Below, one piece after another: positions 70-37,551 of a stretch of DNA of 64,000 nucleotides. The translations under genes were made by a program, and so were the position numbers. This DNA comes from a virus. The DNA lies in IMG/VR virus record IMGVR_UViG_3300044591_002420, positions 61,004 to 125,003 of that record; one strand, written 5' to 3'. The notes under the pieces are model-generated. The model saw only the letters and a list, made by a program, of their open reading frames with translations. It was not told where the DNA came from and made no database searches. Within the stretch, counting starts at the first letter, position 1. Each line of letters starts with the position of its first letter.

Positions 70-552
70 GTGGACAAATTTGAACAAGCTAGAGATCCAA
101 ACGCTCCAACGAATGTACTAGAACAACTAGCGACCGATGTGGATCCTGATGTTCGTTGGTATGTAGCACAAAATCCAAACACACCACCAAAAGTTCTAGA
201 ACAACTAGCGACCGATGAGGATTCTGATGTTTGTTATCGGGTAGCAGAAAACCCAAACACTCCACCAAAAGTCCTAGAACAACTAGCGACTGATGGGAAT
301 TCTGATGTTCGTTCGTGTGCAGCACGAAATTCAAACACACCACCAAAAGTTCTAGAACAATTAGCGACCGATAAGTATTCTAGTGTTCGTTATGACGTAG
401 CAAATAATCCAAACACACCACCAAAAGTACTAAAGCTTCTAGCGACCGATGAGTATTATGGTGTTCGTTATTGTGTAGCAAAAAATCCAAACACTCCACA
501 TTACATCAAGAGGTATCTTAAAATTCAAGAACAACTTAGGACACTTCTTTAA
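70..552 (+). CDS. LRV/HEAT-like repeat protein (5 repeats + C-cap)
   Basis: 26-aa repeats NPNTPPKVLEQLATDxxxxVRxxVAx and C-cap PHYIKRYLKIQEQL; GTG at 70 is the likelier start (ORF open from 13). Confidence 0.85.
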   Translation: MDKFEQARDPNAPTNVLEQLATDVDPDVRWYVAQNPNTPPKVLEQLATDEDSDVCYRVAENPNTPPKVLEQLATDGNSDVRSCAARNSNTPPKVLEQLATDKYSSVRYDVANNPNTPPKVLKLLATDEYYGVRYCVAKNPNTPHYIKRYLKIQEQLRTLL

Positions 553-605
553 CTGTCACAACAAAATACCCAGACCATCCAAAAACCCACTACCATAAAA
601 AGACA

Positions 606-917
606 ATGAGTTACGAACACTATGTGAAACAACTTAAACCATGTTCTGAATGTGGTGAACCCCATGATCTTCGTTGGTGTGGCATCAGTGTCAGACCTTA
701 TTGTGGAAATTGTAAAAATTGGGGAGCCGTTAATTATAAAGCCGCCGAGGATGCAATTGCTTCTTGGAATGCATCTTATGAGCGAGCAGAAAAACGGTGG
801 CGAAATGAGGACCAAATTCGGAATCTTGAAAAGTATTCAAGGCAAATCGGTATTGATCTATCCATTCAAGATCTTATTGATTTCCATCGCGCCCATTCTT
901 CACATCTATTTTCTTAG
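606..917 (+). CDS. Lar-like (restriction alleviation) zinc-finger protein
   Basis: LKPCSECG...CGNC...AEDAIASWN matches the Lar-family pattern LKPCxxCG..CxxC..AIxAWN. Confidence 0.55.
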   Translation: MSYEHYVKQLKPCSECGEPHDLRWCGISVRPYCGNCKNWGAVNYKAAEDAIASWNASYERAEKRWRNEDQIRNLEKYSRQIGIDLSIQDLIDFHRAHSSHLFS

Positions 918-928
918 GAGGTTTTATT

Positions 929-1159
929 ATGAAAAATGTTGACGTTGAATTGTCTATTTTTCTTATTGGAGTGTTTCTTTGTGTTATTGTTGCAATCATT
1001 GGGGATTATTATAATGATTTGATGACCAAAAAACAATATACAAATAATCTCGAAATCGTTATTAACTGCCGTAAGTCTCATGCACCTAATATTCTGGTTG
1101 CAGATCGGATTTGTGGTCCTGTTCCTCAATGGGCAACTCATAACAGGGAGGCCGAATGA
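929..1159 (+). CDS. Small membrane protein
   Basis: AGGAGG RBS upstream; N-terminal hydrophobic helix. Confidence 0.7.
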   Translation: MKNVDVELSIFLIGVFLCVIVAIIGDYYNDLMTKKQYTNNLEIVINCRKSHAPNILVADRICGPVPQWATHNREAE

Positions 1160-1554
1160 TGAAACCATTTGATTATTACTCAAACAACACTGAAGTTTAT
1201 CCAGAAAGACGGGAATATACAGGAGTCTTTGTTTATGATAAAGGCAAATTAATCTGGCAAGGAAGTTTAAATGTTTATAGTCAGGTATTAGAATCTCTTA
1301 AACGAAATCACCCCAATTATGTAATTCAAAAATTTGTTCATGAGGATGCTTACAAAGAGCAGAGAACAAAATGGAATATTGAAAATACTCGGCTCTATAA
1401 TGAATTTAAAAGGGATCTCTTTGAAGAGTTTGGAGTTGAAAATCACCCTAAACGAGAAAAAGTTTTTGAGATGGCATGGGAACGTGCGCACTCTTCAGGA
1501 TACTATGAAGTTTACTTAGCCTTTGAAGATCTTGTTGAACTTATTAAGGATTAA
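1156..1554 (+). CDS. Hypothetical phage protein
   Basis: ATGA overlap with the previous gene, co-directional. Confidence 0.75.
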   Translation: MMKPFDYYSNNTEVYPERREYTGVFVYDKGKLIWQGSLNVYSQVLESLKRNHPNYVIQKFVHEDAYKEQRTKWNIENTRLYNEFKRDLFEEFGVENHPKREKVFEMAWERAHSSGYYEVYLAFEDLVELIKD

Positions 1555-1556
1555 TT

Positions 1557-1844
1557 ATGACAAATCTCTTTGAATACCCGAATAGTTGGAATTCTCCAAG
1601 ATTTTTCTTTCAGAAGAATATTGGGGATATCATCAATGAGCTATCTTTGGCTCACGGATTGGATCTAAAAACATTCACCGAAAATAGAGGTTTCTTTAAT
1701 AGATCTGGAACCTTTACTGTTGTAGGTGAGTTTTCCGATGTTCGCGCCTTTGGTGAATTTCTGGAATCTACCTATAACAACTATCTCACCCACAATAATA
1801 CTGACTGGGATCTCTACCAAAATTACGATTACACAGAACAATGA
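1557..1844 (+). CDS. Hypothetical protein
   Basis: Tightly packed + strand ORF. Confidence 0.7.
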   Translation: MTNLFEYPNSWNSPRFFFQKNIGDIINELSLAHGLDLKTFTENRGFFNRSGTFTVVGEFSDVRAFGEFLESTYNNYLTHNNTDWDLYQNYDYTEQ

Positions 1845-2482
1845 TTTTTGAATCTCTTCTTTCTCTGGCTCTGATTCACAATCAACCAGTTGTTACACCT
1901 CGTCTATATACTCCTCCGATTATTTTGGCGGCTCGGAGTAATAGGGGTTATCGTCCATCCACTTCAATTCGCCCAACTTCTTCATCACCGTCTATTAGTC
2001 GGCCTATTCGTTCTTCTGGTGGTAATATTGTTATTAATCAACAAAGGGGATTTAAGCCTTCTAATACTCCCTTGAACGTAACTCGGTCTTCCGCTGGTAA
2101 TGTTGTTATTAATCGACAACGAACTTCTCCACCAGTTATTCGCACAGCTCCCGTTATTCGTTCTACGCCTTCGTCTAGCACAGCTCCCGTTATTCGTTCT
2201 CCACGAGTTTATACATCTCGTCCCATCGTGAGAGAGAGGATTATTGAACGGGAATCCGGTGGCGGTTTTCTCGGTAATCCATTCTTTTGGCTTTATATGA
2301 GTCAACAAAACAATAATTCTCAACCACGACAGGTTATTGTTCAGACACCTTCACAACCACAAAATACAACAGTTCAACCGATTATCCAAAAAAATGATTA
2401 TAATCCTGGACGAGAATTTGCTACATTCGCTCTAGGTTCCGGTCTTACTGTTCTGGCTATGCGTTCTCTCGCTCGTTCTTGA
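1841..2482 (+). CDS. Low-complexity R/S/P-rich protein with hydrophobic termini
   Basis: Internal duplications (GNxVINxQR twice, TAPVIRS twice); hydrophobic N- and C-termini. Confidence 0.7.
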   Translation: MIFESLLSLALIHNQPVVTPRLYTPPIILAARSNRGYRPSTSIRPTSSSPSISRPIRSSGGNIVINQQRGFKPSNTPLNVTRSSAGNVVINRQRTSPPVIRTAPVIRSTPSSSTAPVIRSPRVYTSRPIVRERIIERESGGGFLGNPFFWLYMSQQNNNSQPRQVIVQTPSQPQNTTVQPIIQKNDYNPGREFATFALGSGLTVLAMRSLARS

Positions 2483-2485
2483 ATT

Positions 2486-2725: not shown

Positions 2726-2733
2726 ATTTGATT

Positions 2734-3090
2734 ATGTGTCATTATCTCCAATCATGGAATCCAAACACACCACCAAAAACACTGGAACAACTAGCAACCG
2801 ATGAATATTATTTGGTTCGTTGGAACGTAGCAAATAATCCAAACACACCACCAAAAACACTGGAACAACTAGCAACCGATGAATATTATTTGGTTCGTTG
2901 GAACGTAGCAAATAATCCAAACACACCACCAAAAGTTCTAGAAATTCTAGCGACCGATAAGGAGTATCGGGTTCGTTATGGGGTAGCAATAAATCCAAAC
3001 ACTCCACACTACATCAAAAAGTATCTTAAAATTCAAGAACATCTTAGGACACTCCACAAACTGTCACATCCTCAACACCATACCACCTAA
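2734..3090 (+). CDS. LRV repeat protein (3 repeats, two identical 78-bp units)
   Basis: Exact 78-bp tandem duplication; C-cap PHYIKKYLKIQEHL. Confidence 0.8.
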   Translation: MCHYLQSWNPNTPPKTLEQLATDEYYLVRWNVANNPNTPPKTLEQLATDEYYLVRWNVANNPNTPPKVLEILATDKEYRVRYGVAINPNTPHYIKKYLKIQEHLRTLHKLSHPQHHTT

Positions 3091-3460: not shown

Positions 3461-4051
3461 ATGATTAATTTGGAAGATTATGTAGATCAGGAAGTGATTA
3501 TTATTAATAGTGAAAGACTATCACGATTTAACTATCATTCTATCTGCTATAAGGTAGGGAAAGTCACCAGAAAACATCATGATTCTACCAGTATTAATCA
3601 TTTTATTATCGGTAAAGACTCTTACACAAAAGAGGGTCGTCTTTTTGGGGGCGAGGGTGTGCAGAAGATTATATATATTCACCGCATTGTTCCGAAACTT
3701 ATTGGTTTGGCTCAGAAGGCACCCAATATTGAACTGGAGCAATTTGTGGGTAAGAAAGTTCTTGTTAAGTATAATGATAACACCGTTTATATTGGTAGAG
3801 TAGAAAAAAATGACAATGGAATTCTCTGCAGTTTTAATATCGGTAGTACTTCCTTCACTCATAAGGGATGTGTATATGGATGCTCTGATCCAAAATCTAT
3901 TCTAGAAATTTATGAAGAAGGCGCATATCAACTCTTCACTTCATCTATTCCCGAACCTGAAAATAAAAAGATGAATGAATTAGCTGAACAGATTAAGGAA
4001 CTCAATGAAACAGAACTAGTGGAATTGTTTAAGATTATTAAGGAACCTTGA
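3461..4051 (+). CDS. Hypothetical protein with internal two-fold repeat
   Basis: INLEDYVDQEV / IELEQFVGKKV duplicated domain. Confidence 0.7.
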   Translation: MINLEDYVDQEVIIINSERLSRFNYHSICYKVGKVTRKHHDSTSINHFIIGKDSYTKEGRLFGGEGVQKIIYIHRIVPKLIGLAQKAPNIELEQFVGKKVLVKYNDNTVYIGRVEKNDNGILCSFNIGSTSFTHKGCVYGCSDPKSILEIYEEGAYQLFTSSIPEPENKKMNELAEQIKELNETELVELFKIIKEP

Positions 4052-4599
4052 TGGATTTGTCTATTGATTCCTATGTTTCACCAGAAGTTCTTGCTGATCT
4101 CGCGGGGAACGATAGCCGTAAGATTCGGTGTGATGTGGCGTGTCATCCCAACACGCCATTGGAAGCCTTAGAACTTCTAGCTACTGATTGTGATCCTGAT
4201 GTTCGTTATTACGTAGCATTAAATGATAATACCCCATCGGGTACACTAGAACAATTAGCTAAAGATACAGATTTTGATGTTCGCTGTGAAGTAGCATGTC
4301 ATCTAAACACACCGACAGAAATCCTAGAACAACTAGCGACCGATAAAGTGTCTCCTGTTCGTTGGGGAGTAGCAAGAAATCCAAACACACCACCAAAAGC
4401 CCTAGAACAACTAGCGACCGATGAGAATCATAATGTTCGTTGTGGGGTGGCAGAAAATCCAAACACTCCACCAAAAGCCCTAGAGCTTCTAGCGACCGAT
4501 AAGAACTCTGATGTTCGTTATTGGGTAGCAAGAAATCCAAACACTCCACACTACATCAAAAAGTATCTTAAAATTCAAGAACATTTAGCTAGATTATGA
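4051..4599 (+). CDS. LRV repeat protein (6 repeats + C-cap)
   Basis: Repeat consensus and C-cap as above. Confidence 0.85.
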   Translation: MDLSIDSYVSPEVLADLAGNDSRKIRCDVACHPNTPLEALELLATDCDPDVRYYVALNDNTPSGTLEQLAKDTDFDVRCEVACHLNTPTEILEQLATDKVSPVRWGVARNPNTPPKALEQLATDENHNVRCGVAENPNTPPKALELLATDKNSDVRYWVARNPNTPHYIKKYLKIQEHLARL

Positions 4600-4997
4600 A
4601 CAAATTTAGAACATCAAAAAGCCGACGTACTTCACCAAAAGTCTTAGAAATTCTAGTGACCGATGAGGATCGTAATGTTCGTTCCAAAGTAGCACGAAAT
4701 CCAAACACACCACCAGAAGTCCTAGAACAACTGGCAACAGATCAGGATTATGTTGTTCGTTATGCTGTAGCAACACATCTAAACACTCCACCGAAAGTTC
4801 TAGAACAACTATCGACCGATGATATATTGGATGTTCGTTGGGATATTGCAGAAAATCCAAACACTCCACCAAAAGCTCTAGAACAACTAGCGAGCGATGA
4901 GGATTTTTCTGTTCGTTGTAGCGTAGCAGAAAATCCAAACACACCACACTTCATCAAGAAGTATCTTAAACTTCAAGAACATCTAAAAACATTATGA
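4596..4997 (+). CDS. LRV repeat protein (4 repeats + C-cap)
   Basis: Repeat consensus; ATGA-coupled to the upstream LRV gene. Confidence 0.85.
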   Translation: MNKFRTSKSRRTSPKVLEILVTDEDRNVRSKVARNPNTPPEVLEQLATDQDYVVRYAVATHLNTPPKVLEQLSTDDILDVRWDIAENPNTPPKALEQLASDEDFSVRCSVAENPNTPHFIKKYLKLQEHLKTL

Positions 4998-5485: not shown

Positions 5486-6949
5486 ATGGAAACCCGAGAA
5501 TCACGTTTAAATAAAATCAATAACATAAATTGTCCATATGCTGTTAAATTTAATCCTAGCAGTAGAGTGATTTATTTACAAGAAAACCATAAACACTTGG
5601 CACCCGGAGCCGAATGTCAAACAGAAGTTAGTATAGCGGGGAGAGTTATATCAAAAAGAGTTTTTGGTAAACTAGCCTTTTTTACATTATTGGACGAAAC
5701 AGGAACAATTCAAGCTTATATTGATAAAGGTTACCTAGACAGTTTTAATAATTTATATTTTTCTGAATTAACAACATTGGTTGATATCGGTGACTGGATT
5801 GGCCTTAGCGGACATCTTAAAGGAACCGAAAAAGGAGAATTATCAGTAAAGGTTAGAACTTGGCAGATGCTTTCTAAGGCACTTCAATCTTTACCTGATA
5901 AATGGCATGGATTAATTGACGTTGAAAAACGTTACAGACAAAGATATCTTGATTTAATTAGTAATCCGAAAAATAAAGAAATCTTTTATAAGAGATCTAA
6001 AATCATAAAGACTATCCGAAATTTTTTAGATGAACAGAATTTCTTAGAAGTAGAAACTCCTATTCTTCAAACTGAAACGGGTGGAGCAGATGCTAGACCC
6101 TTTCTGACGCATCATAACACTTTAGATATCCCTCTTAATTTGAGGATTGCGACGGAACTTCACCTGAAAATGATGATTGTTGGGGGATTTGAAAGAATTT
6201 ATGAAATTGGTAGAATTTTTAGAAATGAAGGAATAAGTACAAAACACAATCCAGAATTCACCTCTATTGAAATTTATAGTGCTTTTTCTGATTATTACGA
6301 CATGATGGATTTAGTACAAAAACTTATCTCTGAATGTTGTAAACAAGTATGTGATTCTGAGATTATTGAATATCAAGGCAACTTAATAGATTTTTCCTTT
6401 GGATTTCGTCGTGTTTCAATGCATGAAATTGTAGAGGAAAAAACAGGTTTAAATTTTAATAATTTCAATACTTGCCAAGAAGCTATTATTGAATTGAATA
6501 AAATGGGAATTGAACCTAGATCAAGTGATTCTTTGGGGCGACTTCTTAATGATGTTTTTGAGCAAAAAGTGGAAAATGAATTAATTCAACCGACAATTGT
6601 TATGGATTATCCGATAGAGATATCTCCTCTTGCCCGGCCTCATAGAAGCAAATCTGGTTTGGTTGAAAGATTTGAACTTTTTGTTGCAGGAAGAGAATTG
6701 GCGAATGCATTTAGTGAATTGATTGATCCGATAGACCAAAGAGCCAGATTTGAAGAACAACAACAAAGAAAAATAAATGGAGATTTAGAGGCACAAAATA
6801 TAAATGAATTATTCTTAGAAGCACTTGAGGTAGGAATGCCGCCAACTGGAGGACTAGGTATAGGAATCGATAGATTAGTTATGTTACTAACTGATAGTGC
6901 ATCAATTCGTGAAGTTATCGCTTTCCCTTTATTGAAACCCACCAATTGA
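5486..6949 (+). CDS. lysS: Lysyl-tRNA synthetase (class II)
   Basis: OB fold (FGKLAFFTL), [59 protein letters not shown]. Confidence 0.97.
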
Positions 6950-10492: not shown

Positions 10493-11019
10493 ATAAAGAA
10501 CTTATTGATCATCTAAAATCAAGACATCTAAATTTAGAACTTCATCGTCCAATTCTTGATGAAGAACTTTCAATAGCAACCTTTCTTTTTTATAATCTAT
10601 CAGAACAACTTGTTGGTTATCAACAATACAATCCCAATGGTGATAAAAAGATCTTCAACTCAAAATTAGGTGGTCGTTATTACACTTATCGTAAACAACC
10701 AACAATTGCTATTTGGGGCCTAGAATCATATTACATTTCAGATGGACCAATTTTTATCACTGAGGGTATTTTTGACGCAGCAAGATTTACTGAAAGAAAT
10801 CAGACTGCATTTGCTGTTTGTAGTAATGATCCACCGAAGGATTATAAAAATTGGTTTGATACATTACCGAGAAAAGTTATTGCGATTTGTGATAATGATC
10901 CTGCCGGTGAAGAACTGGCTAAGTTTGGAGATTATTATGAAATTGTTCCCGACAACAAAGATGTAGGAGAATCTTCTGAAGAATATGTTCGTTATCTTAT
11001 TGAGAAATACACAAAATGA
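10489..11019 (+). CDS. Toprim-domain (DnaG primase-like) protein
   Basis: IFITEGIFDA and ICDNDPAG Toprim motifs, KDVGE. Confidence 0.8.
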   Translation: MNKELIDHLKSRHLNLELHRPILDEELSIATFLFYNLSEQLVGYQQYNPNGDKKIFNSKLGGRYYTYRKQPTIAIWGLESYYISDGPIFITEGIFDAARFTERNQTAFAVCSNDPPKDYKNWFDTLPRKVIAICDNDPAGEELAKFGDYYEIVPDNKDVGESSEEYVRYLIEKYTK

Positions 11020-12791
11020 CTATTATTAAAAACTATCGCACTCATAATTGCGGTCAATTGACATCTAAAAATGTTAATGAGATCGTGACACTTTCTGGAT
11101 GGATTGATCGTAGACGCGATCATGGTAAATTGATTTTTATTGATCTTCGTGATAGCAGCGGAGTGATTCAATTAGTTTTATCTAATGAAAATTCTGAACG
11201 TCTGAGAGTTGAGACTGTTATTCTGATTACAGGTAATGTTATTTCCAGACCGATTGAGAATATCAATAATGAAATTTCAACAGGAGAGATAGAAGTAGAA
11301 GTGAGCGATTTAATTATTCTAAACGAGGTTAAACACGTTCTACCATTTTCTGTTTCAAGAAATGAAAGAACTGTTGTGAATGAAGAGTTACGTTTACAGA
11401 ATCGTTATCTTGATCTTAGAAGTAAACGCATGAGTGATAATATACGAATGCGCCATAAAGTAACAAGATCCATTCGTAATTTCTTAGAATCGGAAAATTT
11501 TATTGAAGTTGAAACACCTATTCTTAATCGTTCAACTCCAGAAGGTGCAAGAGAATACTTGGTACCAAGTAGAATCTATAAAGGAGAATGGTTCTCTCTT
11601 TCTCAATCACCACAACTGTTTAAACAGATGCTGATGGTGGGTGGAATTGAAAGATATTATCAAATTGCACGATGCTTCAGAGATGAATCTTTAAGAGTTG
11701 ATCGACAACCAGAATTTACACAAATTGATTTAGAGATGAGCTTCATGTCTCAAGATGAAATTCTTTCTCTTAGTGAGAGAATGATTTCTACTATCTGGAA
11801 AGAAGCAAAAGGAGAAGAATTGTCCATTCCTTTTTCTAGAATGAGTTGGAAAGAATCAATGGAGAGATATGGAACAGATCGGCCAGATATTCGCTATGGA
11901 TTAGAATTATCCGATGTTTCAAAGATCTTTTCTGATTGTGGTTTTAAGGTATTTTCCAATGTGATTAAAAGTGGTGGAGTTGTTAAATGTATTACCATCA
12001 ATTCTAACAACGAATCAATTACAAAATCTCGTCTTAAAATTGGAGGAGATTTAAATGATTTGGCGATAAATTTGGGTTCCGGTGGACTCGCATATATCAA
12101 AATAAATGACGACCATGAATTTGATTGTATCAATGCCATTAAAGACAATTTAACAGAATTCCAAAAAACTGAACTGTTAGAAATAACAGAAGCTACATCT
12201 GGAAGCTTGATTATATTTTGCGCTGGTACTTCTGATGTCGTCAATAAAACACTAGGCAAAATTCGTCAAGTTCTCGCAGAGGAATTGAATCTCATTACGA
12301 ATATGAATTCCTTTTTGTGGATTGTTGATTTTCCTATGTTTGAATATAATCCAATTGAGAATAAATTGTGTTCACTCCATCATCCTTTTTGTGCTCCAAA
12401 TGAAGACGATTTAGGAACCGAACCCGATTTATGGTCTGAGCGAATTGTTCACTGCCGAGCACAATCTTATGATTTGGTTCTCAATGGATACGAATTGGGT
12501 GGTGGATCATTACGAATTCATGATTCCGAATTACAGAGAAAAGTTTTACAGATTCTCGGTCTTTCTGAAGAAAAGATTGATGATCAATTTGGATTTCTTT
12601 TAAATGCATTGGATTCTGGCGCTCCTCCTCATGGCGGATTGGCTTTTGGTTTAGATAGAATTGTTATGCTTCTTTTGAATGAAGAATCCATTCGTGATGT
12701 TATTGCCTTTCCGAAAAGCTCACAAACTAGATGTCTACTAACGGGTGCTCCTTCAACTGTTTCAGATAATCAACTTCTTGAATTTGAATAG
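11016..12791 (+). CDS. aspS: Aspartyl-tRNA synthetase (probably non-discriminating Asp/Asn type)
   Basis: RTHNCG, RRDHGKLIFIDLRD, TPEGARE, QSPQLFKQ, CFRDE..RQPEFTQ, GAD insert, HHPF, ELGGGSLRI, GAPPHGGLAFGLDR. Confidence 0.97.
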   Translation: MTIIKNYRTHNCGQLTSKNVNEIVTLSGWIDRRRDHGKLIFIDLRDSSGVIQLVLSNENSERLRVETVILITGNVISRPIENINNEISTGEIEVEVSDLIILNEVKHVLPFSVSRNERTVVNEELRLQNRYLDLRSKRMSDNIRMRHKVTRSIRNFLESENFIEVETPILNRSTPEGAREYLVPSRIYKGEWFSLSQSPQLFKQMLMVGGIERYYQIARCFRDESLRVDRQPEFTQIDLEMSFMSQDEILSLSERMISTIWKEAKGEELSIPFSRMSWKESMERYGTDRPDIRYGLELSDVSKIFSDCGFKVFSNVIKSGGVVKCITINSNNESITKSRLKIGGDLNDLAINLGSGGLAYIKINDDHEFDCINAIKDNLTEFQKTELLEITEATSGSLIIFCAGTSDVVNKTLGKIRQVLAEELNLITNMNSFLWIVDFPMFEYNPIENKLCSLHHPFCAPNEDDLGTEPDLWSERIVHCRAQSYDLVLNGYELGGGSLRIHDSELQRKVLQILGLSEEKIDDQFGFLLNALDSGAPPHGGLAFGLDRIVMLLLNEESIRDVIAFPKSSQTRCLLTGAPSTVSDNQLLEFE

Positions 12792-14879: not shown

Positions 14880-15125
14880 ATGAGCAAACTTGACCGGGCA
14901 AGAAATCCGAACACCCCACCAAAAGCACTAGAACAACTAGCATCCGATGAGCATTATCTTGTTCGGTATTATGTAGCAGAAAACCCAAATACTCCACCAA
15001 AAGCCCTAGAAATTCTAGCAAATGATGTGGATTATTGGATTCGTCGTTGGGTAGCAATAAACCCGAACACACCTCACTATCTCAAAAAGTATCTTAAAAT
15101 TCAAGAACAGCTTATCAAATTATGA
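14880..15125 (+). CDS. LRV repeat protein (2 repeats + C-cap)
   Basis: Repeat consensus and cap. Confidence 0.8.
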   Translation: MSKLDRARNPNTPPKALEQLASDEHYLVRYYVAENPNTPPKALEILANDVDYWIRRWVAINPNTPHYLKKYLKIQEQLIKL

Positions 15126-17437: not shown

Positions 17438-17947
17438 ATGAACATTTTTGCAACTTCATCTTGCCCCGAACAATCAGCAATCGTTCTTCCTGATAAGCAC
17501 ATCAATAAGATGCCAACTGAATGTTGTCAGATGTTGGCATATGCCGCATCATCTTCTTACAATAACTACGGAACAATTCCAAAAATCAACGGTGAACCAT
17601 ATAAGACCACAAATATCGCTCATCTTAAGCATCCATGTACAAAATGGGCAGCAGAATCAATTCATAATGCTTCCTGGTTGATTTATCATGCGTTTATGTT
17701 GTGTGAAGAATTTGAGCGCCGATTTGGTCATAAACATGGAACTTATAATACTCTCATGGCAGCTTATGTGTTGTTTCCAGAAGGTCAATTTTCGTTGATA
17801 ACTCCATTTGTTCGCTCAATGGATGAAGTTTTTAAGTTTGATACTACCATTGATACGTTTATGGCATATAAGCTCTATCTTGCGAGTAAGCCATGGATTC
17901 AGGATAATTATATTCGTTTGCCCGAAAGGAAGCCGGAATGGATTTAA
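17438..17947 (+). CDS. Pyrimidine-dimer DNA glycosylase-like (DenV-related) phage protein
   Basis: MNIF..DKHINKMPTECCQML..HLKHPCTKWA..RKPEW, a family common in T4-like phages. Confidence 0.6.
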   Translation: MNIFATSSCPEQSAIVLPDKHINKMPTECCQMLAYAASSSYNNYGTIPKINGEPYKTTNIAHLKHPCTKWAAESIHNASWLIYHAFMLCEEFERRFGHKHGTYNTLMAAYVLFPEGQFSLITPFVRSMDEVFKFDTTIDTFMAYKLYLASKPWIQDNYIRLPERKPEWI

Positions 17948-18351: not shown

Positions 18352-18416
18352 CTGTCACAATAACCACCCATTTCCACAATCCATCCGTTAAACCACAAAC
18401 TGTATCTGAGATTACC

Positions 18417-21477: not shown

Positions 21478-22518
21478 ATGGCTAAGAGTGATCAGCTTAT
21501 TCCAAAAATTCCCGAAGAAGCGTCTTCTGCGATTGATCTAGCCAAGAAAACAACAGACAGAGCTGTTCTTATCGCTCTTTCAAAACATAGTAATAATGAT
21601 GTAAGATTCTTTGTTGCTGAAAATCGTTACACTCCTATTGAGGTTCTCAGAGAACTTTCAAAGGATTGTTATTTTACTGTTCGGCTTAAAGTTGCGGGAA
21701 ATCCTTCAACTCCTTCGGATGTTTTAGAGAATATTATGGAAAATGATATTTCTCTTAAGGCAGCAGTGGAAAATAATCTTTCTTATAAAAGTAAAGATAA
21801 AGAAGAAGTTCAGGCTTTTCTTAAGAACATTAGTATAACTGATGCCAAAAATTTAGCGGAAAATATTAATACTCCTCCTGAGACACTTATTAAACTTGCC
21901 GGGCATAAAAATTCATATGTTACTCTTCTGCTATCTCGTAATCCCAATACTCCAGCAGAAGCTCTTAAAATTCTTGCAACCCTTGATGACCGTATTGTAA
22001 GAAATTATGTGTTTGATCATAATAATTCGTCAGCAGAAACCTTAGCTATTATTGATTGTATAGACGGTTTTACTACAGGAGAATATAGGATTCTTTACGA
22101 TAAACAGGCCCGTATTATTGAAAAATACAAAAGAGAAGAAACACAAAGAGTTACACAACGAGAACAAGAACAGAAACAACTAAAAGAAAAAGAAGAAAAA
22201 CTCCAGAGTGAATTAGAACATAGGCAAGAATCTCAAAGAATTCTCGCAATTATTAGTAATCCCGAAACACCTATTGAAGAATTATTAAAATACAGCTATC
22301 GTGAAGAAATCATTAACAACCCAACCTATAGGAGATACCTAAATCTCAATAAGACAGACCCAACTGATTTAGAAATTCTAGATTTTTTAGATTGGGTCTA
22401 TAATGCAGACACAGAAAAACTAGAAGCCTTTGCTGCACTAGATTTATCTAAGAAATTATCATTGTGGGAAAAACTAATTCTGTTCTTTAAAAATCTCTTT
22501 AACGGAAAAACATTATGA
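21478..22518 (+). CDS. Divergent LRV repeat protein with coiled coil
   Basis: Several NPxTPxExL repeats and a Q/E/K coiled coil. Confidence 0.8.
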   Translation: MAKSDQLIPKIPEEASSAIDLAKKTTDRAVLIALSKHSNNDVRFFVAENRYTPIEVLRELSKDCYFTVRLKVAGNPSTPSDVLENIMENDISLKAAVENNLSYKSKDKEEVQAFLKNISITDAKNLAENINTPPETLIKLAGHKNSYVTLLLSRNPNTPAEALKILATLDDRIVRNYVFDHNNSSAETLAIIDCIDGFTTGEYRILYDKQARIIEKYKREETQRVTQREQEQKQLKEKEEKLQSELEHRQESQRILAIISNPETPIEELLKYSYREEIINNPTYRRYLNLNKTDPTDLEILDFLDWVYNADTEKLEAFAALDLSKKLSLWEKLILFFKNLFNGKTL

Positions 22519-22878: not shown

Positions 22879-23283
22879 ATGTCAATCACAACTGAACAAC
22901 TAAAAGAGATTTTCAATAAAGTTCTTTCGGAAATTGAAAATCTAAATGTTGCGAACCTTTCTTATTTTGAAAAGAAATCGCTAGCTTGTGATCCCAAAAC
23001 CTCACCGGAAATCTTAGCAGTTCTGGCTACCGATGAGGATTCTCTTGTTCGTTATTTGGTAGCAAGAAATCCAAACACACCACCAAAAGTCCTAGAACAA
23101 CTAGCGACCGATGTGGAATATTGGATTCGTTGTTGTGTAGCAAAACATCCAAACTATGAAAAAGCTACTGTAAGGGTTCCAGATCTATCTGTGGCTGAAT
23201 ATAATGCCCTAAAAGAACTACTCAAAAATACACAAAATCAAAGTCTAAAATCTCTTTCCATCAAACTAGGAGTCATTCAATGA
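22879..23283 (+). CDS. LRV repeat fusion protein (2 repeats)
   Basis: Canonical repeats flanked by unrelated helices; AAGGAG RBS. Confidence 0.8.
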   Translation: MSITTEQLKEIFNKVLSEIENLNVANLSYFEKKSLACDPKTSPEILAVLATDEDSLVRYLVARNPNTPPKVLEQLATDVEYWIRCCVAKHPNYEKATVRVPDLSVAEYNALKELLKNTQNQSLKSLSIKLGVIQ

Positions 23284-24231: not shown

Positions 24232-24846
24232 ATGAAACCTCAATTCTTCTCTGCTCAAATTCCATTTATGGGATTTTATGCTTCCATTCATTCTGATGCT
24301 ATTGATCACGAAGAAGAACAACTGTTCACTTCTGATACAGGAAAATTCTATGATGCACTTTATGATGACTTTTTTCTTCATGTGAATTGGGAACAAGTTT
24401 ATCAGAAGTATGCAACAGTTTATTGCGATGAATTCGCTAAGACTTTTGGTATCACTCTTGATTTTGAAGAGTTAGTTTCTCCGAGAGAATATAACTTCCA
24501 AACCGATCGGATTTTCGCAAAGATCTCAAGGAATGATCTTGCAAAGATTCTTAAAAAAGTTCGCGGGGAGAAACTGAAGAATACAACCAATAAGCTCTTT
24601 TCTTCTCGGTCTGGTTTCGTTTCTTATTATTCCAATAACATCAGAGATTGGGGTAAAATTTCTACTTGGGACCACAATCAAATCTATGCAATTTTAGTTG
24701 CGTTCACTGAATCTTCTTTCTCGGAAGATGAGATCTTGTCTAGTATTTTTGAAAACAATAATGTTGGTGATTGGATTTATGAATCCGCAGATTATAAAGG
24801 TAAACTGGCCATAAAATTTGCCGATATTATGAGGAGAGTTTATTGA
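24232..24846 (+). CDS. Hypothetical early phage protein
   Basis: IPFMGFY...SPREYNFQTDRIF motif. Confidence 0.8.
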   Translation: MKPQFFSAQIPFMGFYASIHSDAIDHEEEQLFTSDTGKFYDALYDDFFLHVNWEQVYQKYATVYCDEFAKTFGITLDFEELVSPREYNFQTDRIFAKISRNDLAKILKKVRGEKLKNTTNKLFSSRSGFVSYYSNNIRDWGKISTWDHNQIYAILVAFTESSFSEDEILSSIFENNNVGDWIYESADYKGKLAIKFADIMRRVY

Positions 24847-25190
24847 TGGTCTACCTAAAAACAACAGAATCAAGAGAATCTGCTGCACGAAATCCAAACA
24901 CACCGCCAAAAACTCTAGAGCAACTAGCGACCGATGATGATTGGAATGTTCGTTGGAACGTAGCAGAAAATCCAAACACACCACCAAAAGCCCTAGAGAT
25001 TCTAGCGAGCGATGAGAATTCTCTTGTTCGTTGGAAGGTAGCAAGAAATCCAAACACCCCACCAAAAGTCTTAGAACAACTAGCGTCTGATGAGGATTGG
25101 ATGGTTCGTTATCGTGTAAAACATAATCCAAACACACCACACTACATCAAAAAGTATCTTAAAATTCAAGAACAACTAGCTAGATTATGA
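24846..25190 (+). CDS. LRV repeat protein (3 repeats + C-cap)
   Basis: Repeat consensus and cap. Confidence 0.85.
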   Translation: MVYLKTTESRESAARNPNTPPKTLEQLATDDDWNVRWNVAENPNTPPKALEILASDENSLVRWKVARNPNTPPKVLEQLASDEDWMVRYRVKHNPNTPHYIKKYLKIQEQLARL

Positions 25191-25357
25191 ACAAATATTA
25201 CCTTGCTATAGACCCAAACACTTCAACAGAAATCCTAGAACAACTGGCAACCGATGAGAGTCCTTCCGTTCGCTGTAATGTAGCAGAAAATCCAAACACT
25301 CAACATTACATCAAGAGGTATCTTAAAATTCAAGAACATCTTAGGACACTTCCATAA
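25187..25357 (+). CDS. Minimal LRV protein (1 repeat + C-cap), not in the ORF track
   Basis: Translated by hand: MNKYYLAIDPNTSTEILEQLATDESPSVRCNVAENPNTQHYIKRYLKIQEHLRTLP. Confidence 0.75.
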   Translation: MNKYYLAIDPNTSTEILEQLATDESPSVRCNVAENPNTQHYIKRYLKIQEHLRTLP

Positions 25358-25574
25358 CTGACCACCAACCCGCATCTGCTCCACAATATTTCTGCTATTA
25401 TGATAAAGCCAACGGAGATTTTCAATGAATTCTTCTGAACTGATTCAAGGACAAATTGAAGCACTAATGCCATCTTATCTTCGTGCCAAAGAAGATGCGA
25501 TTAAAACAGGTAAAGCCGAAGAAAAAATCGGTTCAGATTCACTTAATTTTTATCTCAATTAAACCAAAATTAAA

Positions 25575-27533: not shown

Positions 27534-27875
27534 ATGCTTTTTTCTAATGATGCTTTTAGTGGAGAAGGAGAATATAGTGGAACATTTCTTCATCATTTTC
27601 TGATTGAATGTGCAGCAAAACATGGCGAAACAAATCCAGGTTTTATTGAACGAATCGCGGAAAAAGAACAAACTGATGTCACATTGACTATTGATGGAGA
27701 AGAAGTTGATATAAGCGAAACTCTTCAATTTTTCTGGTCACAAATGGATAACATGATTAAAGAGCGAGCATGCAAACTAATGCGCGACAAATTTGTTGAT
27801 ATTAGTGATAATTTACAGATTATTGAAAATGAAGTTCTTCATAAGATGAAGGATGAACTCGGGTTTGATTATTAA
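27534..27875 (+). CDS. Hypothetical protein
   Basis: GAGG RBS. Confidence 0.7.
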   Translation: MLFSNDAFSGEGEYSGTFLHHFLIECAAKHGETNPGFIERIAEKEQTDVTLTIDGEEVDISETLQFFWSQMDNMIKERACKLMRDKFVDISDNLQIIENEVLHKMKDELGFDY

Positions 27876-28243
27876 TGATTATGTCAAAGAATGAAGATAT
27901 TACGAAGCTAACACTTAATGAAAAATGTAATCAAGCTAGAGATCCAAACACTCCACCAAAAACTCTAGTACAACTAGCTACCGATGAGGAATGGTATGTT
28001 CGTTATTGGGTAGCACTAAACCCAAACACTCCACTAAAAGTTCTAGAACATCTAGCAGCCGATGAAAATTATTGGGTTCGTGATGAAGTAGCAAATAATC
28101 TAAACACACCAATAAAAACACTAGAACAACTAGCGAGCGATGAGTATATTAGTGTTCGTCTTGAAGTGGCAAGAAATCCAAACACACCACACTACATCAA
28201 GAAGTTCATTACCATTCAAGAACAGCTTAGGTCACTTCCATAA
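27875..28243 (+). CDS. LRV repeat protein (3 repeats + C-cap)
   Basis: Repeat consensus and cap. Confidence 0.85.
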   Translation: MIMSKNEDITKLTLNEKCNQARDPNTPPKTLVQLATDEEWYVRYWVALNPNTPLKVLEHLAADENYWVRDEVANNLNTPIKTLEQLASDEYISVRLEVARNPNTPHYIKKFITIQEQLRSLP

Positions 28244-28309
28244 CTGTCACAATAACCACCAATAACACCATAGAAATCTGCTAGTATTCAACTACAAACC
28301 GATCTTCTC

Positions 28310-28573
28310 ATGTCAACACGAATTATTACCCACTACAATCCACCACCACATCGCCGTTCTTTTGGTGGATTTATTCGCTTTCTTCGTAGCGTTATTAATA
28401 TTTTGTTGTTGTTAATTGGCTTTATCATCGCATTTTATCTCGCAGTCGCTATTTTGTCATTTTTTGTGGTTTCAATAATTAAAGGAAATGTTATTGGAAT
28501 TATTGGCAGTATTGTAATCGCACTCATCGTAATCATCGTCACTTATCTAGTGGAAGCATATAAAAACTACTAA
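28310..28573 (+). CDS. Membrane protein
   Basis: Two TM helices. Confidence 0.7.
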   Translation: MSTRIITHYNPPPHRRSFGGFIRFLRSVINILLLLIGFIIAFYLAVAILSFFVVSIIKGNVIGIIGSIVIALIVIIVTYLVEAYKNY

Positions 28574-29018: not shown

Positions 29019-29864
29019 ATGAAACTTCAAGAAATCATTGCCCATCTGAACACCAAAGAAGAACCCTATTCCGGTGAAGATCTTCAAAGGAAACTTGGTC
29101 ACCAAAATCCAGTGGATCTTTCAATCCATGGATTCTCTTTACGTGTGATCCAGAAATATAGCACATCCGTAAGAGCTGCTTATCATCTCATTTACCATAA
29201 TGGTGTTCCAATTTGTATTGCTCATTTTTATCAATCATTTCAATATTTATTGGCTGAATACTGTTGGATCAGTGAAGAAATCTATTGGAATATCCTGAAA
29301 ATTATTAAAAATATTCACTCTCAAGATATTCGTCTTATTGTTCAAAATGAAGAATGGGATCCCGTTGATATTGAACTGAAACCAATTAGTGAAATTATTC
29401 TGTCCGAAAAACAGAAACTTGAACTGGCAAAAAATCCAGATACTTCTTCTGGATTGTTGGAGTTTCTTGCATCCGATGAGAATGAAGAGGTTCGTCGTCG
29501 TGTAGCAGAAAATATAAACACTCCACCAGAAATTCTTGAACAACTAGCGACCGATAAGGATCCTTATGTTCGTTGGTTTGTAGCACGAAATCCAAACACA
29601 CAATCAGAAGCCTTAGAACTTCTAGCAATCAATAATGATTTTGGTGAGTATCATTGGGGAATTCACTGTGGAGTGGCAAATAATCCAAACACTCCATTAA
29701 AAACTTTAGAACTTTTTGTGACCCATAATAATGGCGCAGTTCGTTATTGTGTGGCAGGAAATCCAAACACACCAACAAAAATTCTAGAAGTGTTGGTTAA
29801 TGATGAGTTTCCTAATGTTCGGGAACGAGCGGCAGAAAATCTTAAATCAAGGACGGTTGCTTAA
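29019..29864 (+). CDS. Fusion of unknown N-domain with 5 LRV repeats
   Basis: Canonical repeats in the C-terminal half. Confidence 0.85.
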   Translation: MKLQEIIAHLNTKEEPYSGEDLQRKLGHQNPVDLSIHGFSLRVIQKYSTSVRAAYHLIYHNGVPICIAHFYQSFQYLLAEYCWISEEIYWNILKIIKNIHSQDIRLIVQNEEWDPVDIELKPISEIILSEKQKLELAKNPDTSSGLLEFLASDENEEVRRRVAENINTPPEILEQLATDKDPYVRWFVARNPNTQSEALELLAINNDFGEYHWGIHCGVANNPNTPLKTLELFVTHNNGAVRYCVAGNPNTPTKILEVLVNDEFPNVRERAAENLKSRTVA

Positions 29865-29931
29865 CTGTCCACTGATGCCACCAGTGACTCGGTAACCATC
29901 TTATATTGATTCTGTTCCCAGAGAATTTCTC

Positions 29932-30904
29932 ATGTCACTCACACCAGAAGAGATGGAAACGTTGGATCTTCGTTCGCCACGATGGCTTGAAGATCCTATT
30001 TCTTTCGTTGATAAGTATCATACGGATAATGAGATTGTTGATCTCTTGATGAGTGATAGAGGAGTTCTTAAGAATTTTCTTTCTACACTCGGTTGTAGTC
30101 TGTCTAATCGTCAAGTAAGAGAAAGTGCTAATTCCGCTACAAGATGGATTAATGATCTCAACTCTTGTGAAGAGAAAGAAGGACTTACCGATGATATGAA
30201 ACTATGGAGAATGGGCCACAAGGCTATGCTGGCATGGTTGCATTCTCATAGAGCCAAGCGATCAACTTATAGCACAACAAATCCGAATCAATATCGCAGA
30301 CAATAATAACATCAATTTCATTCATTTTTCAACAAAATCATGATCTTCACACAAGAGGATGTTTTCAAACTCACTAATCTTCTTAATGAAAAATTGGGAG
30401 ACTTTGGGTATTTTAAAGTTTCCTACACTGCTCTAGGTGGTGCAGATCGGGCATCACTGTTTGTTCATTCTTCAAGACAAAAACAAAAAGAATGGCTCTA
30501 TGGCATTTATCATAACAGTGATTATGCGATCTTTTGTCTGGATTATCTTGGTAAAATGGAGATCATCAGCAGACATCATCAGATGCCAAAGATGCGCAAA
30601 TGTAACATCAAATCTCTTGAAGATGCCGCCGATAGAATTGCCAAATATCTTCTTAGTGTCTCATAATAACATCATGTATCTTTATACAGTTGAAATTCAT
30701 TTCCGATATAACGACGAGATTATACAACTTGTTTGTATTAACGATGCTTTGTCTTATCTTATATACACCTTTGATAAATCAGAAGATATTCTTGAATATA
30801 CAATTAGTTGTGGCGCAAATACGTTATTGACCAAAGAATTTTTTAGTTTTCCTTGCGACAAACTTGTAACAGAATTTCATTTTGAAGATCCTTATGCAGT
30901 GTGA
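29932..30904 (+). other. Three hypothetical early genes (29932..30306, 30340..30666, 30674..30904)
   Basis: Co-directional ORFs between palindromes 29850 and 30901. Confidence 0.7.
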
Positions 30905-34790: not shown

Positions 34791-34807
34791 TCCTAATACC
34801 CCAACCA

Positions 34808-35426: not shown

Positions 35427-35444
35427 AACTCTTCCATTAACTAA

Positions 35445-35522
35445 CATCTGCTTCGGTATTATTATATCGGAGCATTTGTTATATCTTTACATTTAGCCTT
35501 AATAACAGCTTATAGTGTCCGT
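35445..35522 (-). ncRNA. Putative ACGG-leader small RNA, copy 1
   Basis: Minus-strand TATAAT (35530-35535) 30 nt from palindrome 35566; ACGG start; hairpin 35449-35474. Confidence 0.45.
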
Positions 35523-35647
35523 AAGAGTTATTATACACGATACAATGCACTAATGGTCCATGAGTGTTCCAGTTTATCAAGTGTCCACTGCTGCTGTTAT
35601 TCCTCCATAATATGGGTTATTGTTATTAAGTCTTCAGGGAAACAACA

Positions 35648-35815
35648 ATGTTTGATTTCATCAACGATCGCAATCTGATTATCATTGCACTTCTTTGTAT
35701 TGCTGGAGTAGGATCAATTCTTTACGGTCTTTATGCCCTCTTTGGTCTTTATGGAATCGTTATTCCTATTGGAGTCTTAGCATCATTGGTTCTTTTCTAT
35801 AACACTCGCTACTGA
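35648..35815 (+). CDS. Small membrane protein (not in track)
   Basis: Hand-translated 55-aa hydrophobic ORF after palindrome 35566. Confidence 0.6.
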   Translation: MFDFINDRNLIIIALLCIAGVGSILYGLYALFGLYGIVIPIGVLASLVLFYNTRY

Positions 35816-36020
35816 TAACACTATGGATAAAGTGAACATGGTATTTCTTATTATCCAAACCACTGTAGCTTTATATTTCACCTTCTTTCTTGATAATCTC
35901 ACTCATAAGGCATTTAAGGAACTGGATGTAGACAAAAGGCGTCTTATTTCATGGGGAATGTTCTTTCTTATGCTCATCTCTCTCAATACTTTTAACTGAA
36001 CTCAAAGGTTTCTTCATATA

Positions 36021-36047
36021 GCTAGGACTAATAATCCTAGCTTTTTA
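36021..36047 (+). terminator. Intrinsic terminator
   Basis: GCTAGGA-loop-TCCTAGC followed by TTTTT. Confidence 0.75.
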
Positions 36048-36781
36048 TTGTCTAATAATCTAATAACATAAATAATAACAGGTAATAACAATCCTCTTAC
36101 ACCTCCGGCCTCTGTAGTCACTGTCTCAAAGAGATCAAATTACACACCACTAAGGTTCTTAAAGATTAAAAATCCTACTTCCAACCGAATAACAAAAAAC
36201 AGTAATAAAACTGATTATATTTTATTGCTTATAATAATTCAAGTAGAAAGCGTTAGCGCGATCTACGATTTTTTAGTATCTGCGTGTACCAGTTTATCAA
36301 GTGTCCACTCGTGGTTGCTTGATCTTTTAATACCTGTTATATTGTTAATGACCTAAAAGAATTCCACTCATCATGCTAATGATTTTTATCATTTACTTCT
36401 ACATGGTCACTTGCACATATTGGGCTCTTGTTGCATTACGAACTCCGAGTAATTTTTCCGAACGACTTCTTGTACTACGGGATGATATAAGTCCTTATCA
36501 ATGCTTTGGTTATTATGTTGACGATGTGACAGAAGAGGATCTGGCACAGTCTCCACTCCAACCGATTCAATGATCTGTTATTCTAGTTTCAGCGGTTGAA
36601 CAACTGGCACAGTCTAGCGAGCATACAGATTGCATTATGGTGGCCGGTATTGATTCCAAGTGTTTTTATTGCTAAAATCCTAAAGGATTTGGATTCTTTA
36701 TGACACTCCATAAGCTGTCCACTCAACTCCAATAATCCCAGCACTATCCGCTAACATGATTACTGTTATTGGAATTCTTCA

Positions 36782-37109
36782 ATGAAAATCAACTGGCTTA
36801 ATATTCTTATTTGTTTGATAGGAATTATTAGTAACATTATTCTTTTTAATTTGCTTTTCGGGCCAGGTCCCCATCTTTCTGCAATGGTACTTGGTATTGT
36901 ATGGGGACTGTTTTTCCCATTTATTGATATTGAGTGATCCAATGAAAATCAACTGGCTTAATTTCTTTTATTGGCACCTTGTCAATCAGGTTTCATTAAC
37001 AGTGTTTACTGTGTTCTTTGGTCCTGTAGACATTTTGACAGCAATAATAACTGGTACTTTCTGGGGTGTAGTATCAAATTACACTCTTCCGATTTTTTAT
37101 TACGAATGA
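36782..37109 (+). other. Tandem paralogous small membrane genes (36782..36937, 36942..37109)
   Basis: Both start MKINWLN from identical DNA and share FGP..G..WG. Confidence 0.65.
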
Positions 37110-37341
37110 TGCCACACCACAAGTACATTGTTGAAGTTAGGAACATTGATGGTTCCTTGGCAAGTTTTTCAGAACAGGAAAAGAAAAGACAAGAACATCC
37201 ATATCTCTTTTCAAAAGAAGAATTTACAATAGATGAACTTTGTTATTATGCGTCATTTGGACAGAAGAGAAATTTTCCAATTGGTCCTGTAGGTTTGCCC
37301 AAATTTATGCAAGATATTGGTATTTCTTATCGGCTTAAAAC

Positions 37342-37551
37342 ATGGTAACAACCCATTCATTATTAGAAAGTTATGAAATCCATCTTAAACGTTGTTATAC
37401 CGCAATAAGTTTAGACACACCAATAAAAGATCTATTGTTATTAGTAACTGACGAGAATTATTTTATTTGGGATTTGGTAGCAGAAAATCCAAACTGCCCA
37501 CATTATATTAAAAGATACATTGTAATTAAAAAGTATCTAATGAGACTGTGA
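37342..37551 (+). CDS. Degenerate LRV protein (1 repeat + cap)
   Basis: TDENYFIWDLVAENPNCPHYIKRYI. Confidence 0.7.
   Translation: MVTTHSLLESYEIHLKRCYTAISLDTPIKDLLLLVTDENYFIWDLVAENPNCPHYIKRYIVIKKYLMRL

Follow-up and report, generated by a model that had tools for sequence, protein, structure and literature searches.

The leucine-rich repeat variant (LRV) protein of Azotobacter vinelandii (1LRV; Pfam PF01816 and LRV_2, PF25591) is built of 24-residue units with two short helices each. We know of no function for 1LRV itself. Here we describe phage proteins of the same sequence family, encoded in a stretch of 64,000 nucleotides (nt), hereafter the window, which corresponds to bases 61004-125003 of the 125,003-bp IMG/VR virus record IMGVR_UViG_3300044591_002420 (contig G0; CheckV completeness about 51%). 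The window contains 13 LRV-repeat genes and the whole contig about 27, all on the + strand and together making up 9.1% of its length. The AlphaFold2 (AF2) model of one phage protein matches the two helices per unit of 1LRV, over 26 residues instead of 24; NPNTP replaces the shorter turn of 1LRV, which gives gaps of two residues in the HMMER alignment, and the Pfam model also has 26 positions. Unlike 1LRV, the phage proteins stand alone without its other domain, share a C-terminal cap (C-cap), and are present as dozens of paralogs per genome. What is new is the occurrence, in a phage, of high-internal-conservation (HIC) hypervariable repeats as a family of stand-alone, binder-like proteins. We think it probable, though far from assured, that this family would constitute a phage-made repertoire of intracellular protein binders, in which a scaffold that evolves in concert carries a diversifying stripe of residues.

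The closest cellular relatives are LRV proteins, 900-1600 aa long, from filamentous cyanobacteria (Nostoc, Calothrix, Tolypothrix, Microcoleus and others; E-values to 1e-133), which share the 26-residue unit NPNTP...L..LA.D....VR..VA. with the phage proteins. The cyanobacterial proteins are single giant proteins, however, with units more diverged from one another than the phage units, and Y, W, F and C make up 4-16% of their equivalent variable sites (scored in 11 of 16 proteins, those with at least five detected units), as compared to 27-28% in the phage. A second point of comparison is provided by the alphaRep proteins (3LTJ, 4JW2), artificial HEAT-like binders that have a fixed scaffold, caps, and variability in the second helix of the unit at positions 18, 19, 22, 23 and 26, as do the phage proteins. 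The libraries randomise positions 18, 19, 22, 23, 26 and 30, and in two solved complexes it is these residues that make up the concave binding face; for positions 18 and 19, the N-cap codon was chosen to omit Cys, Trp, Tyr and Phe (PMC3754942, available portion). AlphaRep is man-made and has a 31-residue unit, whereas the phage library is natural, abounds in W and C, and has two extra variable sites in a loop (16 and 17).

In its mode of evolution, the family resembles the HIC repeats of fungal NOD-like receptors (the WD40 repeats of Podospora het-d and het-e as well as het-r), which undergo concerted evolution and differ in number and order between strains (PMC11761791, available portion). 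As in those repeats, silent sites differ less between phage units of one genome than between units of different lineages, a few hypervariable codons show more nonsynonymous than synonymous change (subject to the effects of saturation and recombination), and repeat number and order are polymorphic between close relatives. The fungal HIC repeats form the sensor domain of one large NOD/STAND NTPase receptor of a cell; the phage proteins, in contrast, are predicted alpha solenoids and not beta-propellers, are small and stand-alone, lack an NTPase, and are spread over more than 100 kb. The literature searched, including the available portion of PMC7824862 and excluding subscription journals and supplements, describes no expansion of LRV or HEAT-repeat genes in phages.

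The LRV genes and their predicted fold

A 21-base scaffold word has 26 matches in the window at up to three mismatches, as compared to 0.01 expected in shuffled sequences. PF01816 matches nine of the 10 window proteins tested (E 2.8e-9 to 2.4e-38), with bit scores of 37-128 against a gathering cut-off of 21.6, and has 71 matches across the whole contig; above the curated cut-off, Pfam returns LRV, LRV_2 and overlapping HEAT-type repeats and nothing else. The repeat period is 78 bp, or 26 residues, with the consensus unit NPNTPPKVLEQLATDxxxxVRxxVAx, in which 19 positions form the scaffold. The contig has 89 units that match the consensus at 10 or more of these 19 residues and 85 that match at 12 or more; stretches matching fewer than 12 (fewer than 10 in some tallies) are excluded from the unit counts. 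Comparisons were made with the sister contig G001 (G1; 179.5 kb) and with the related contig G002 (G2); two G1 units of 27 residues entered the comparisons one residue out of register.

A reading of the window made from its sequence alone, without database searches (the sequence-only reading), had described ten genes, each with one to six 78-bp units and a common C-cap. All ten exist at the starts given there, with the units and the cap as described; the ATG or GTG starts at 70, 2734, 4051, 14880 and 24846 fall within longer, mechanically delimited open reading frames (ORFs). The family is larger than first described, as three additional LRV genes are found in the window (21478-22518, 22879-23283 and 29019-29864) and the family continues upstream of it. 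The LRV genes of the window are as follows.

70-552, + strand: LRV gene, five units (at 94, 172, 250, 328 and 406) and C-cap; PF01816 E 1.3e-29; likely start GTG at 70, within a mechanical ORF of 13-552
2734-3090, + strand: LRV gene, three units and C-cap with a short extension, from translation, Pfam and unit census; units 1 and 2 (2758/2836) identical, with 0 differences over 78 nt
4051-4599, + strand: LRV gene, six units and C-cap; PF01816 E 2.4e-38; its stop and the start of the LRV gene that follows overlap (TTATGA)
4596-4997, + strand: LRV gene, four units and C-cap; PF01816 E 4.1e-28; protein used for the AF2 model
14880-15125, + strand: LRV gene, two units and C-cap; stop overlaps the next ORF
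17938-18351, + strand: LRV gene, four units and C-cap, scaffold DNA more diverged (NPNTSP); PF01816 E 8e-26
21478-22518, + strand: protein of 346 aa, cap-less, that has several degenerate units of LRV-like type (units at 21622 and 21940); no PHROG or PADLOC match
22879-23283, + strand: second architecture, with an N-terminal helix, two LRV units and a C-terminal two-helix tail (NPNY...ALK.L); PF01816 E 2.8e-9
24846-25190, + strand: LRV gene, three units and C-cap; PF01816 E 2.7e-24; stop overlaps the next LRV gene
25187-25357, + strand: smallest LRV gene, one unit and C-cap, 56 aa, from translation and unit census
27875-28243, + strand: LRV gene, three units and C-cap; PF01816 E 4e-20
29019-29864, + strand: 281-aa fusion of a roughly 140-aa N-terminal domain without known family to about five LRV units, no cap; PF01816 E 6.2e-21 at residues 157-181
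37342-37551, + strand: degenerate member with one decayed unit and a recognisable C-cap, from translation; no Pfam match

The stand-alone LRV proteins are 56-183 aa long. In the ten genes first described, the cap reads NPNTP[HQ]Y[IL]KKYLKIQEQL and follows one to six units; contig-wide, 17 cap-bearing genes end in NPNTP[HQRC]Y[IL]KKY[IL]KIQ..L..L, and the C-terminal helix (HYIKKYLKIQEQL..L) is kept even between lineages with diverged scaffolds. The second architecture has four paralogs in the contig (window 22879-23283; contig 39712-40326, 47368-47820 and 58683-59270), with a conserved N-terminal helix, M..s.E.l.EIf.KVL.E, and the tail NPNY....L.vt..q..ALK.LI..sqd..LK.i. It is present too in an unrelated 4.4-kb metagenome contig (P0001), and in a pair of genes from G0 and G1 the signature of the first unit is kept and the other units are changed. 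A related 46-kb contig (G002) encodes, at 36917-39136, an LRV protein of 739 aa with at least 15 units; thus, small stand-alone genes and long arrays coexist in this phage group.

The four-unit protein encoded by window 4596-4994 was modelled by AF2 with a family alignment of 10 sequences. The model has ten helices, with a predicted local distance difference test score (pLDDT) of 96.4 and a predicted template modelling (TM) score of 0.87; within a unit, helix A spans positions 6-12 and helix B 18-26, and the array ends with a 15-residue terminal cap helix. In a Foldseek search, 1LRV gave the best E-value (with TMq of just 0.39), and alphaRep structures gave the best TM-scores (3LTJ, 4JW2, 3LTM and 8AW4; TMq 0.70-0.73). 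By sequence, 1LRV is the sole strong match in the PDB (E 2.3e-12), followed by a HEAT-repeat subunit of PP2A (E 0.008). Positions 18, 19, 22, 23 and 26 have the i, i+1, i+4, i+5, i+8 spacing on helix B, and these five variable sites therefore lie on one helical face; V20 and V24 point away from the variable arc, and sites 16 and 17 belong to the loop that leads into helix B. The design logic of alphaRep, a constant scaffold with a variable face, had been recognised from the sequence and is borne out by the confidently predicted solenoid, by the rank of alphaRep among the structural matches and by the shared site numbers. The further proposal that the variable sites line one helix face holds in the model for the five sites on helix B, but a single concave surface would follow only by analogy with alphaRep. 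A model of the second architecture (22879-23283) has a pLDDT of 79.9, with a core above 90 and both ends at 52-79.

Variable codons, constant codons and turnover between phages

Per-codon entropy bears out the seven variable codons per unit that had been noticed: amino acid entropy is 2.6-3.7 bits at unit positions 16-19, 22, 23 and 26, whereas most scaffold positions stay at 0-1.5 bits, with positions 8 and 11 in between (about 2 bits). The 239 units from four contigs carry 213 distinct signatures of seven residues. Pairs with identical signatures number 33, with 0.1 expected; the rest of the distribution fits independent columns. The composition of the variable sites departs strongly from that expected from base composition (chi-square 733), with an excess of W (7.1-fold), E (3.9-fold), D (3.1-fold), Y (2.4-fold) and C (1.8-fold) and a depletion of T (to 0.08 of expectation), F (0.23), A (0.24), and I and V (0.30). 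The richness in Y, W and C, also remarked on from the sequence, amounts to 12.9%, 7.9% and 5.4% of the residues at the variable sites, as compared to 4.5%, 1.2% and 1.2% in other ORFs. Moreover, every variable site has an alphabet of its own, such as Y/W/C at site 22.

Over all pairs of units, the ratio of the nonsynonymous rate (dN) at variable codons to the synonymous rate (dS) in the scaffold is 2.25 in G0, 2.66 in G1, 2.15 in G2 and 4.08 in a more distant lineage (c99981, a 99,981-bp contig); dN/dS within the scaffold is 0.41-0.59. Pairs of units with closely similar scaffolds show the same trend. In 19 G0 pairs with 0-2 scaffold differences over 57 bases, 4.95 of the seven variable residues differ, and the proportion of nonsynonymous differences (pN) at variable codons is 0.42, against a proportion of synonymous differences (pS) of 0.046 in the scaffold. 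When units were paired with their nearest scaffold, every unit being used only once, variable pN in 42 G0 pairs was 0.498, exceeding both scaffold pS (0.180; Fisher p 2e-36) and the pS of the variable codons themselves (0.381; p 0.011); in 49 G1 pairs it was 0.422, again above scaffold pS (0.145; p 9e-36) and variable-codon pS (0.254; p 4e-5). Replacement at the variable codons thus exceeds silent change, subject to the effects of saturation and recombination, to which we return below.

The scaffold codons are specific to their position, with p-values down to 1e-43. N1 is AAT in 55 of 63 units and N3 is AAC in 71 of 79 (background frequencies 0.81 and 0.19); GTT is used at V20 (79/81; background 0.53) and GTA at V24 (75/82; 0.24). 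CTA is found at L9 (60/89) and L12 (69/88), with a background of 0.14 at both, and CGT at R21 (71/79; 0.18). Codon bias as the source of scaffold identity is ruled out, as one amino acid has different fixed codons at different positions; the scaffold codons must be fixed by descent. The claim that the scaffold DNA is almost invariant even at synonymous sites was nevertheless too strong: codon choice is position-specific, but pS in the scaffold, taken over all pairs, amounts to 0.34-0.36.

In IMG/VR, 21 stretches contain the exact scaffold word, and a profile search found 39 loci in 25 contigs. A tblastn search with one family member against 50,697 sequenced phage records returned a single distant match (a Moorella phage). 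PADLOC matched none of five LRV proteins, and PHROGs weakly matched two of six (phrog_20647, function unknown) and nothing else. Being present in at least 25 IMG/VR contigs and nearly missing from sequenced phages, the family marks an unstudied group of freshwater phages.

The turnover of the repeats is best followed between G0 and G1. The two overlap as if they were parts of a single genome of roughly 240 kb, with alignments at 84-98% nucleotide identity between G0 1-52.9 kb and G1 126.9-178.3 kb and between G0 113.3-125 kb and G1 1-11.9 kb. The region 1-52300 of the window (53-113 kb of the contig) is without a counterpart in G001, whose contig ends at both sides. Across 16 flanking orthologs, pS is 0.150 and pN 0.021 (dS about 0.17), and the proteins are mostly 85-100% identical. 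In the LRV slots, the best matches are 50-87% identical and usually to a non-syntenic gene; in one slot, three G0 genes of 1, 5 and 5 units stand opposite one seven-unit gene of G1, and some LRV genes are found in only one of the two contigs. For four syntenic pairs of LRV genes, variable pN is 0.367, scaffold pS 0.231 and scaffold pN 0.094. Among the 45 G0 units in the region shared with G1, three have an identical signature in place and two a signature in place with two differences; six match elsewhere with at most two differences, and 34 differ at three or more of the seven sites from all 98 G1 units. Over all 85 G0 units, 69 have at least three differences, as compared to 72.6 expected from shuffled columns. 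Since 34 of the 45 units have no G1 counterpart, shuffling of a fixed library is not the main source of variety.

Recombination nevertheless leaves several traces. Identical tandem units occur within genes (for example, at window 2758/2836), and identical signatures are also found in non-syntenic genes or on scaffolds 9-16 bases apart, mostly in the half of the unit that contains helix A, as in half-unit mosaics. The lineage c99981 has LRV genes in the same slots, with flanking proteins 46-77% identical to those of G0 and G1, and a scaffold of its own (NPNTPPETLERLANDxDxxVRxxVAx). Its codons are CCC at P2 (33/55), TTA at L9 (53/55), CTG at L12 (41/55), GCT at A13 (47/55) and GTT at V24 (50/55), where G0 and G1 have CCA, CTA, CTA, GCG and GTA. 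Within lineages, scaffold pS is 0.21-0.34; between lineages it is higher, at 0.51-0.53, whereas variable pN is 0.51-0.57 throughout. The slots are thus old and their contents homogenised within each genome, which amounts to concerted evolution that the variable codons escape. The idea of a recombination-shuffled library is therefore upheld as to recombination, by the lineage-specific scaffolds in syntenic slots, the shared units, the mosaics and the differences in copy number, but not as to shuffling as the main source of the variety.

Contigs assembled at k=31 from lake-water runs (Logan) match the unique DNA of the window exactly and break at the LRV genes; for the gene at 17938-18351, one such contig spans the whole gene without differences. 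The 'joints' of these contigs were considered as a sign of shuffling and rejected, as paralogs and relatives map onto one another. An IMG/VR contig of 8,935 bp (L007) joins, near its base 2804 and inside LRV genes, G1 160.0-157.2 kb to G1 50.7-56.8 kb; the two LRV clusters are in the same orientation and 107 kb apart in G1. This junction is either a real LRV-mediated rearrangement or an assembly chimera.

Possible roles and competing explanations

We propose that a dispersed multigene family in the phage encodes small, stand-alone solenoid proteins of the LRV (HEAT-like) kind, in which each 26-residue unit would consist of helix A, a turn and helix B, and 19 codons would form the framework. 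Ectopic recombination and gene conversion would keep the framework codons alike within a genome. Of the remaining seven codons, two would lie in the loop that precedes helix B and five on the exposed arc of that helix; all seven would be diversified by fast replacement drawn from a restricted set of interface-type residues (W, Y, C, R, D, E, N, S and G), and whole or half units would be gained, lost, duplicated or exchanged, adding further variety. The products may be germline-encoded binding modules that act inside the cell on variable host (or rival) proteins. We infer that the stripe is a binding surface, that selection and not relaxed constraint diversifies it, and that host or defence proteins are its targets; any timing of expression would be inference too. 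The interpretation given in the sequence-only reading, a library of early-expressed binders against host or defence proteins, is thus partly supported.

Several results weigh against this proposal. The assumptions behind dN/dS are violated by near-saturated sites, by the shared history of the pairs and by recombination; ratios to scaffold pS overstate selection, because gene conversion lowers scaffold dS, and in the fairer contrast, inside the variable codons, pN/pS is just 1.3-1.7. In one of the four syntenic pairs (pair G), variable pN (0.242) is below its own pS (0.315). There are several cases of identical signatures on scaffolds 9-16 nt apart, and some units are therefore conserved and not diversifying. 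For five pairs of LRV loci, each pair drawn from different IMG/VR records, identity is 99.97-100% over 3.6-6.6 kb, so that loci sampled repeatedly show no variation on short time scales. A scan for sigma-70 promoters found 73 sites, with 71.3 expected, which is the level of chance, and 'early' expression is unsupported because the LRV genes are interleaved or coupled with baseplate, tail, helicase and nucleotide-metabolism genes. Finally, no psbA is found in G0 or G1, and the name cyanophage would derive from the phage relatives of G0 and from the cyanobacterial LRV homologs.

Could the variable sites simply be unconstrained? Under relaxed constraint combined with concerted evolution, free surface sites of an old family would drift, gene conversion would reset the silent sites, and all paralogs would share one structural or chaperone-like role. 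The concerted evolution of the scaffold is demonstrated, so that scaffold dS is underestimated; the pS of the variable codons is itself high (0.25-0.40); and, save for the excess of identical pairs, the signature differences over all pairs fit the column-shuffle expectation. This explanation deserves weight, but we consider it unlikely in view of the non-neutral composition of the sites (W at 7 times expectation; T, A, F, I and V at 0.08-0.30) and their position-specific alphabets, the excess of pN over pS inside the variable codons (p 0.011 and 4e-5), a syntenic variable pN (0.367) well above the pS of the flanks (0.150), and the persistence of the family, which takes up about 9% of the contig and occupies syntenic slots in different lineages. 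That the proteins bind nucleic acid, in the manner of the HEAT-like AlkC/AlkD proteins, or are associated with the virion seems very unlikely to us. One source labels some homologs 'AlkC', but the label is automatic and Pfam gives LRV and HEAT repeats only; K7 and R21 are kept in every unit, but D15 and R21 are the usual structural pair in HEAT-type repeats, and nucleic-acid surfaces are not typically so rich in W, Y, C, D and E. As for the virion, several of the genes adjoin baseplate or tail genes and are translationally coupled to their neighbours; their MNK[LF]EQA starts, however, are without the N-terminal capsid-targeting motif of the T4 kind, L/I-x-E.

Targeted hypermutation is a further way to restrict variation to fixed codons, and many of the variable codons are NNT, as the AAY template of a diversity-generating retroelement (DGR) would give. 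A DGR or similar machine is nonetheless extremely unlikely to write these codons, given that no reverse transcriptase was found: RVT_1 (PF00078) is absent from the four records searched (G0, G1, G2 and G5), although control genomes gave matches, and G0 and G1 together cover roughly one genome of 240 kb. TGG is among the commonest variable codons, third positions vary too, and loci are identical across samples. To our knowledge, at least 85 targets in about 27 genes would be unlike any DGR. Equally hard to credit is an artefact of metagenome assembly, in which short-read assemblers would have stitched units into chimeric genes. Fungal repeats of this sort are reported to be impossible to rebuild from Illumina assemblies (preprint PMC11761791, available portion), k=31 Logan contigs break at every LRV gene, and in the 8.9-kb IMG/VR contig described above, LRV clusters 107 kb apart in G1 are joined. 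However, exact repeats in the phage genes are at most about 45 nt, because the variable codons interrupt them, syntenic units of G0 and G1 exist with 0-2 nt differences, all reading frames are open, and the near-identity of the five locus pairs extends across LRV genes. Together, the short exact repeats and the near-identical loci make chimeras unlikely and indicate that the genes are stable over the time sampled.

A more elaborate version of the binder proposal, to which we give only a slim chance, is that the family is a repertoire of adaptors. The helix-B faces of the paralogs would capture different, fast-evolving host proteins (defence sensors, or surface and regulatory variants of host strains), and the constant C-terminal helix would dock all of them onto one partner that inactivates or relocates the captured target, in the manner of poxvirus ankyrin/F-box proteins; concerted evolution would then be an evolved means of keeping the genes recombinogenic, so as to obtain new specificities quickly. 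The ankyrin-repeat families of poxviruses have many paralogs with a variable repeat array and a constant C-terminal PRANC/F-box. The parallel is one of analogy only; the repeat type differs and the phage host is bacterial. Pfam matches nothing beyond LRV in the cap, and no F-box or other known docking domain was found.

Phages diversify receptor-binding proteins with retroelements and carry single anti-defence proteins. If the family is indeed a repertoire of protein binders, dozens of hard-wired solenoid binders without a mutator enzyme would represent a distinct strategy against variable hosts, and one with the mode of evolution seen in the hypervariable repeat sensors of fungal immune receptors, though on the side of the virus. 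It would also offer a natural scaffold library for binder engineering, with a small, confidently predicted fold and paratope-like stripes rich in W, Y and C. It would likewise be a clean system in which to study concerted evolution and diversifying selection together in one gene family.

Gene junctions and genomic setting

Of the 17 genes with a cap, 11 end in (T/C)TATGA, and in eight of these the following ORF begins at that ATG and is often itself an LRV gene with the start MNK[LF]EQA; in the window, such overlaps are at 4594-4599, 15120-15125 and 25185-25190. The cap and the start of the next gene seem to travel as one module. At G0 50785-51132, the words TTATGAACAAAC are still present without a following gene. 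Where an LRV gene ends in TAA, a common intergenic element some 60 nt long comes after it, (GACACTT..)TAACTGTCCAC...CCACC...GCTATT.T.ATAA, found at window 552-620, 18351-18420, 25357-25430, 28243-28310, 29864-29935 and 37551-37630, and thus also after the cap-less gene at 29019-29864; it could be a regulatory or a recombination signal. A terminator scan gave 10 sites, with 11.1 expected. The DNA that codes for the cap contains a weak sigma-70-like pair, TCCACA-N18-TAAAAT (9/12), at window 495-524, 3003-3032 and 4545-4574, which is probably a by-product of the conserved coding sequence.

The window has a G+C content of 36%, with nearly all ORFs on the + strand. A near-identity search of the window against cultured phages gave zero matches, psbA was found in neither G0 nor G1, and no tRNA was found in the window. 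At the right end of the window are a gp6-type baseplate wedge protein (phrog_219, E 7.7e-195) and an open-ended giant baseplate or virion protein of more than 2,495 aa; to their left are genes for a DNA helicase, an RNA-ligase-like protein and a metallophosphoesterase, and the LRV genes are interleaved with these baseplate, tail and helicase genes and with genes for replication and nucleotide metabolism. The gp6 homolog shares 64% identity with its counterparts in Synechococcus phages B3 and B23 (about 244 kb), which are without the LRV family, and 53-55% with those of marine cyanomyoviruses. From these relatives and the baseplate genes, the phage is T4-like and related to cyanomyoviruses; its source would be a large uncultured lake-water phage with a genome of roughly 240 kb. 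Amid the LRV genes, and 4 kb apart, lie two paralogous genes for large proteins (window 5486-6949 and 11016-12791) that match phrog_19509 (E 4.5e-37 and 1.3e-173), a family with no assigned function.

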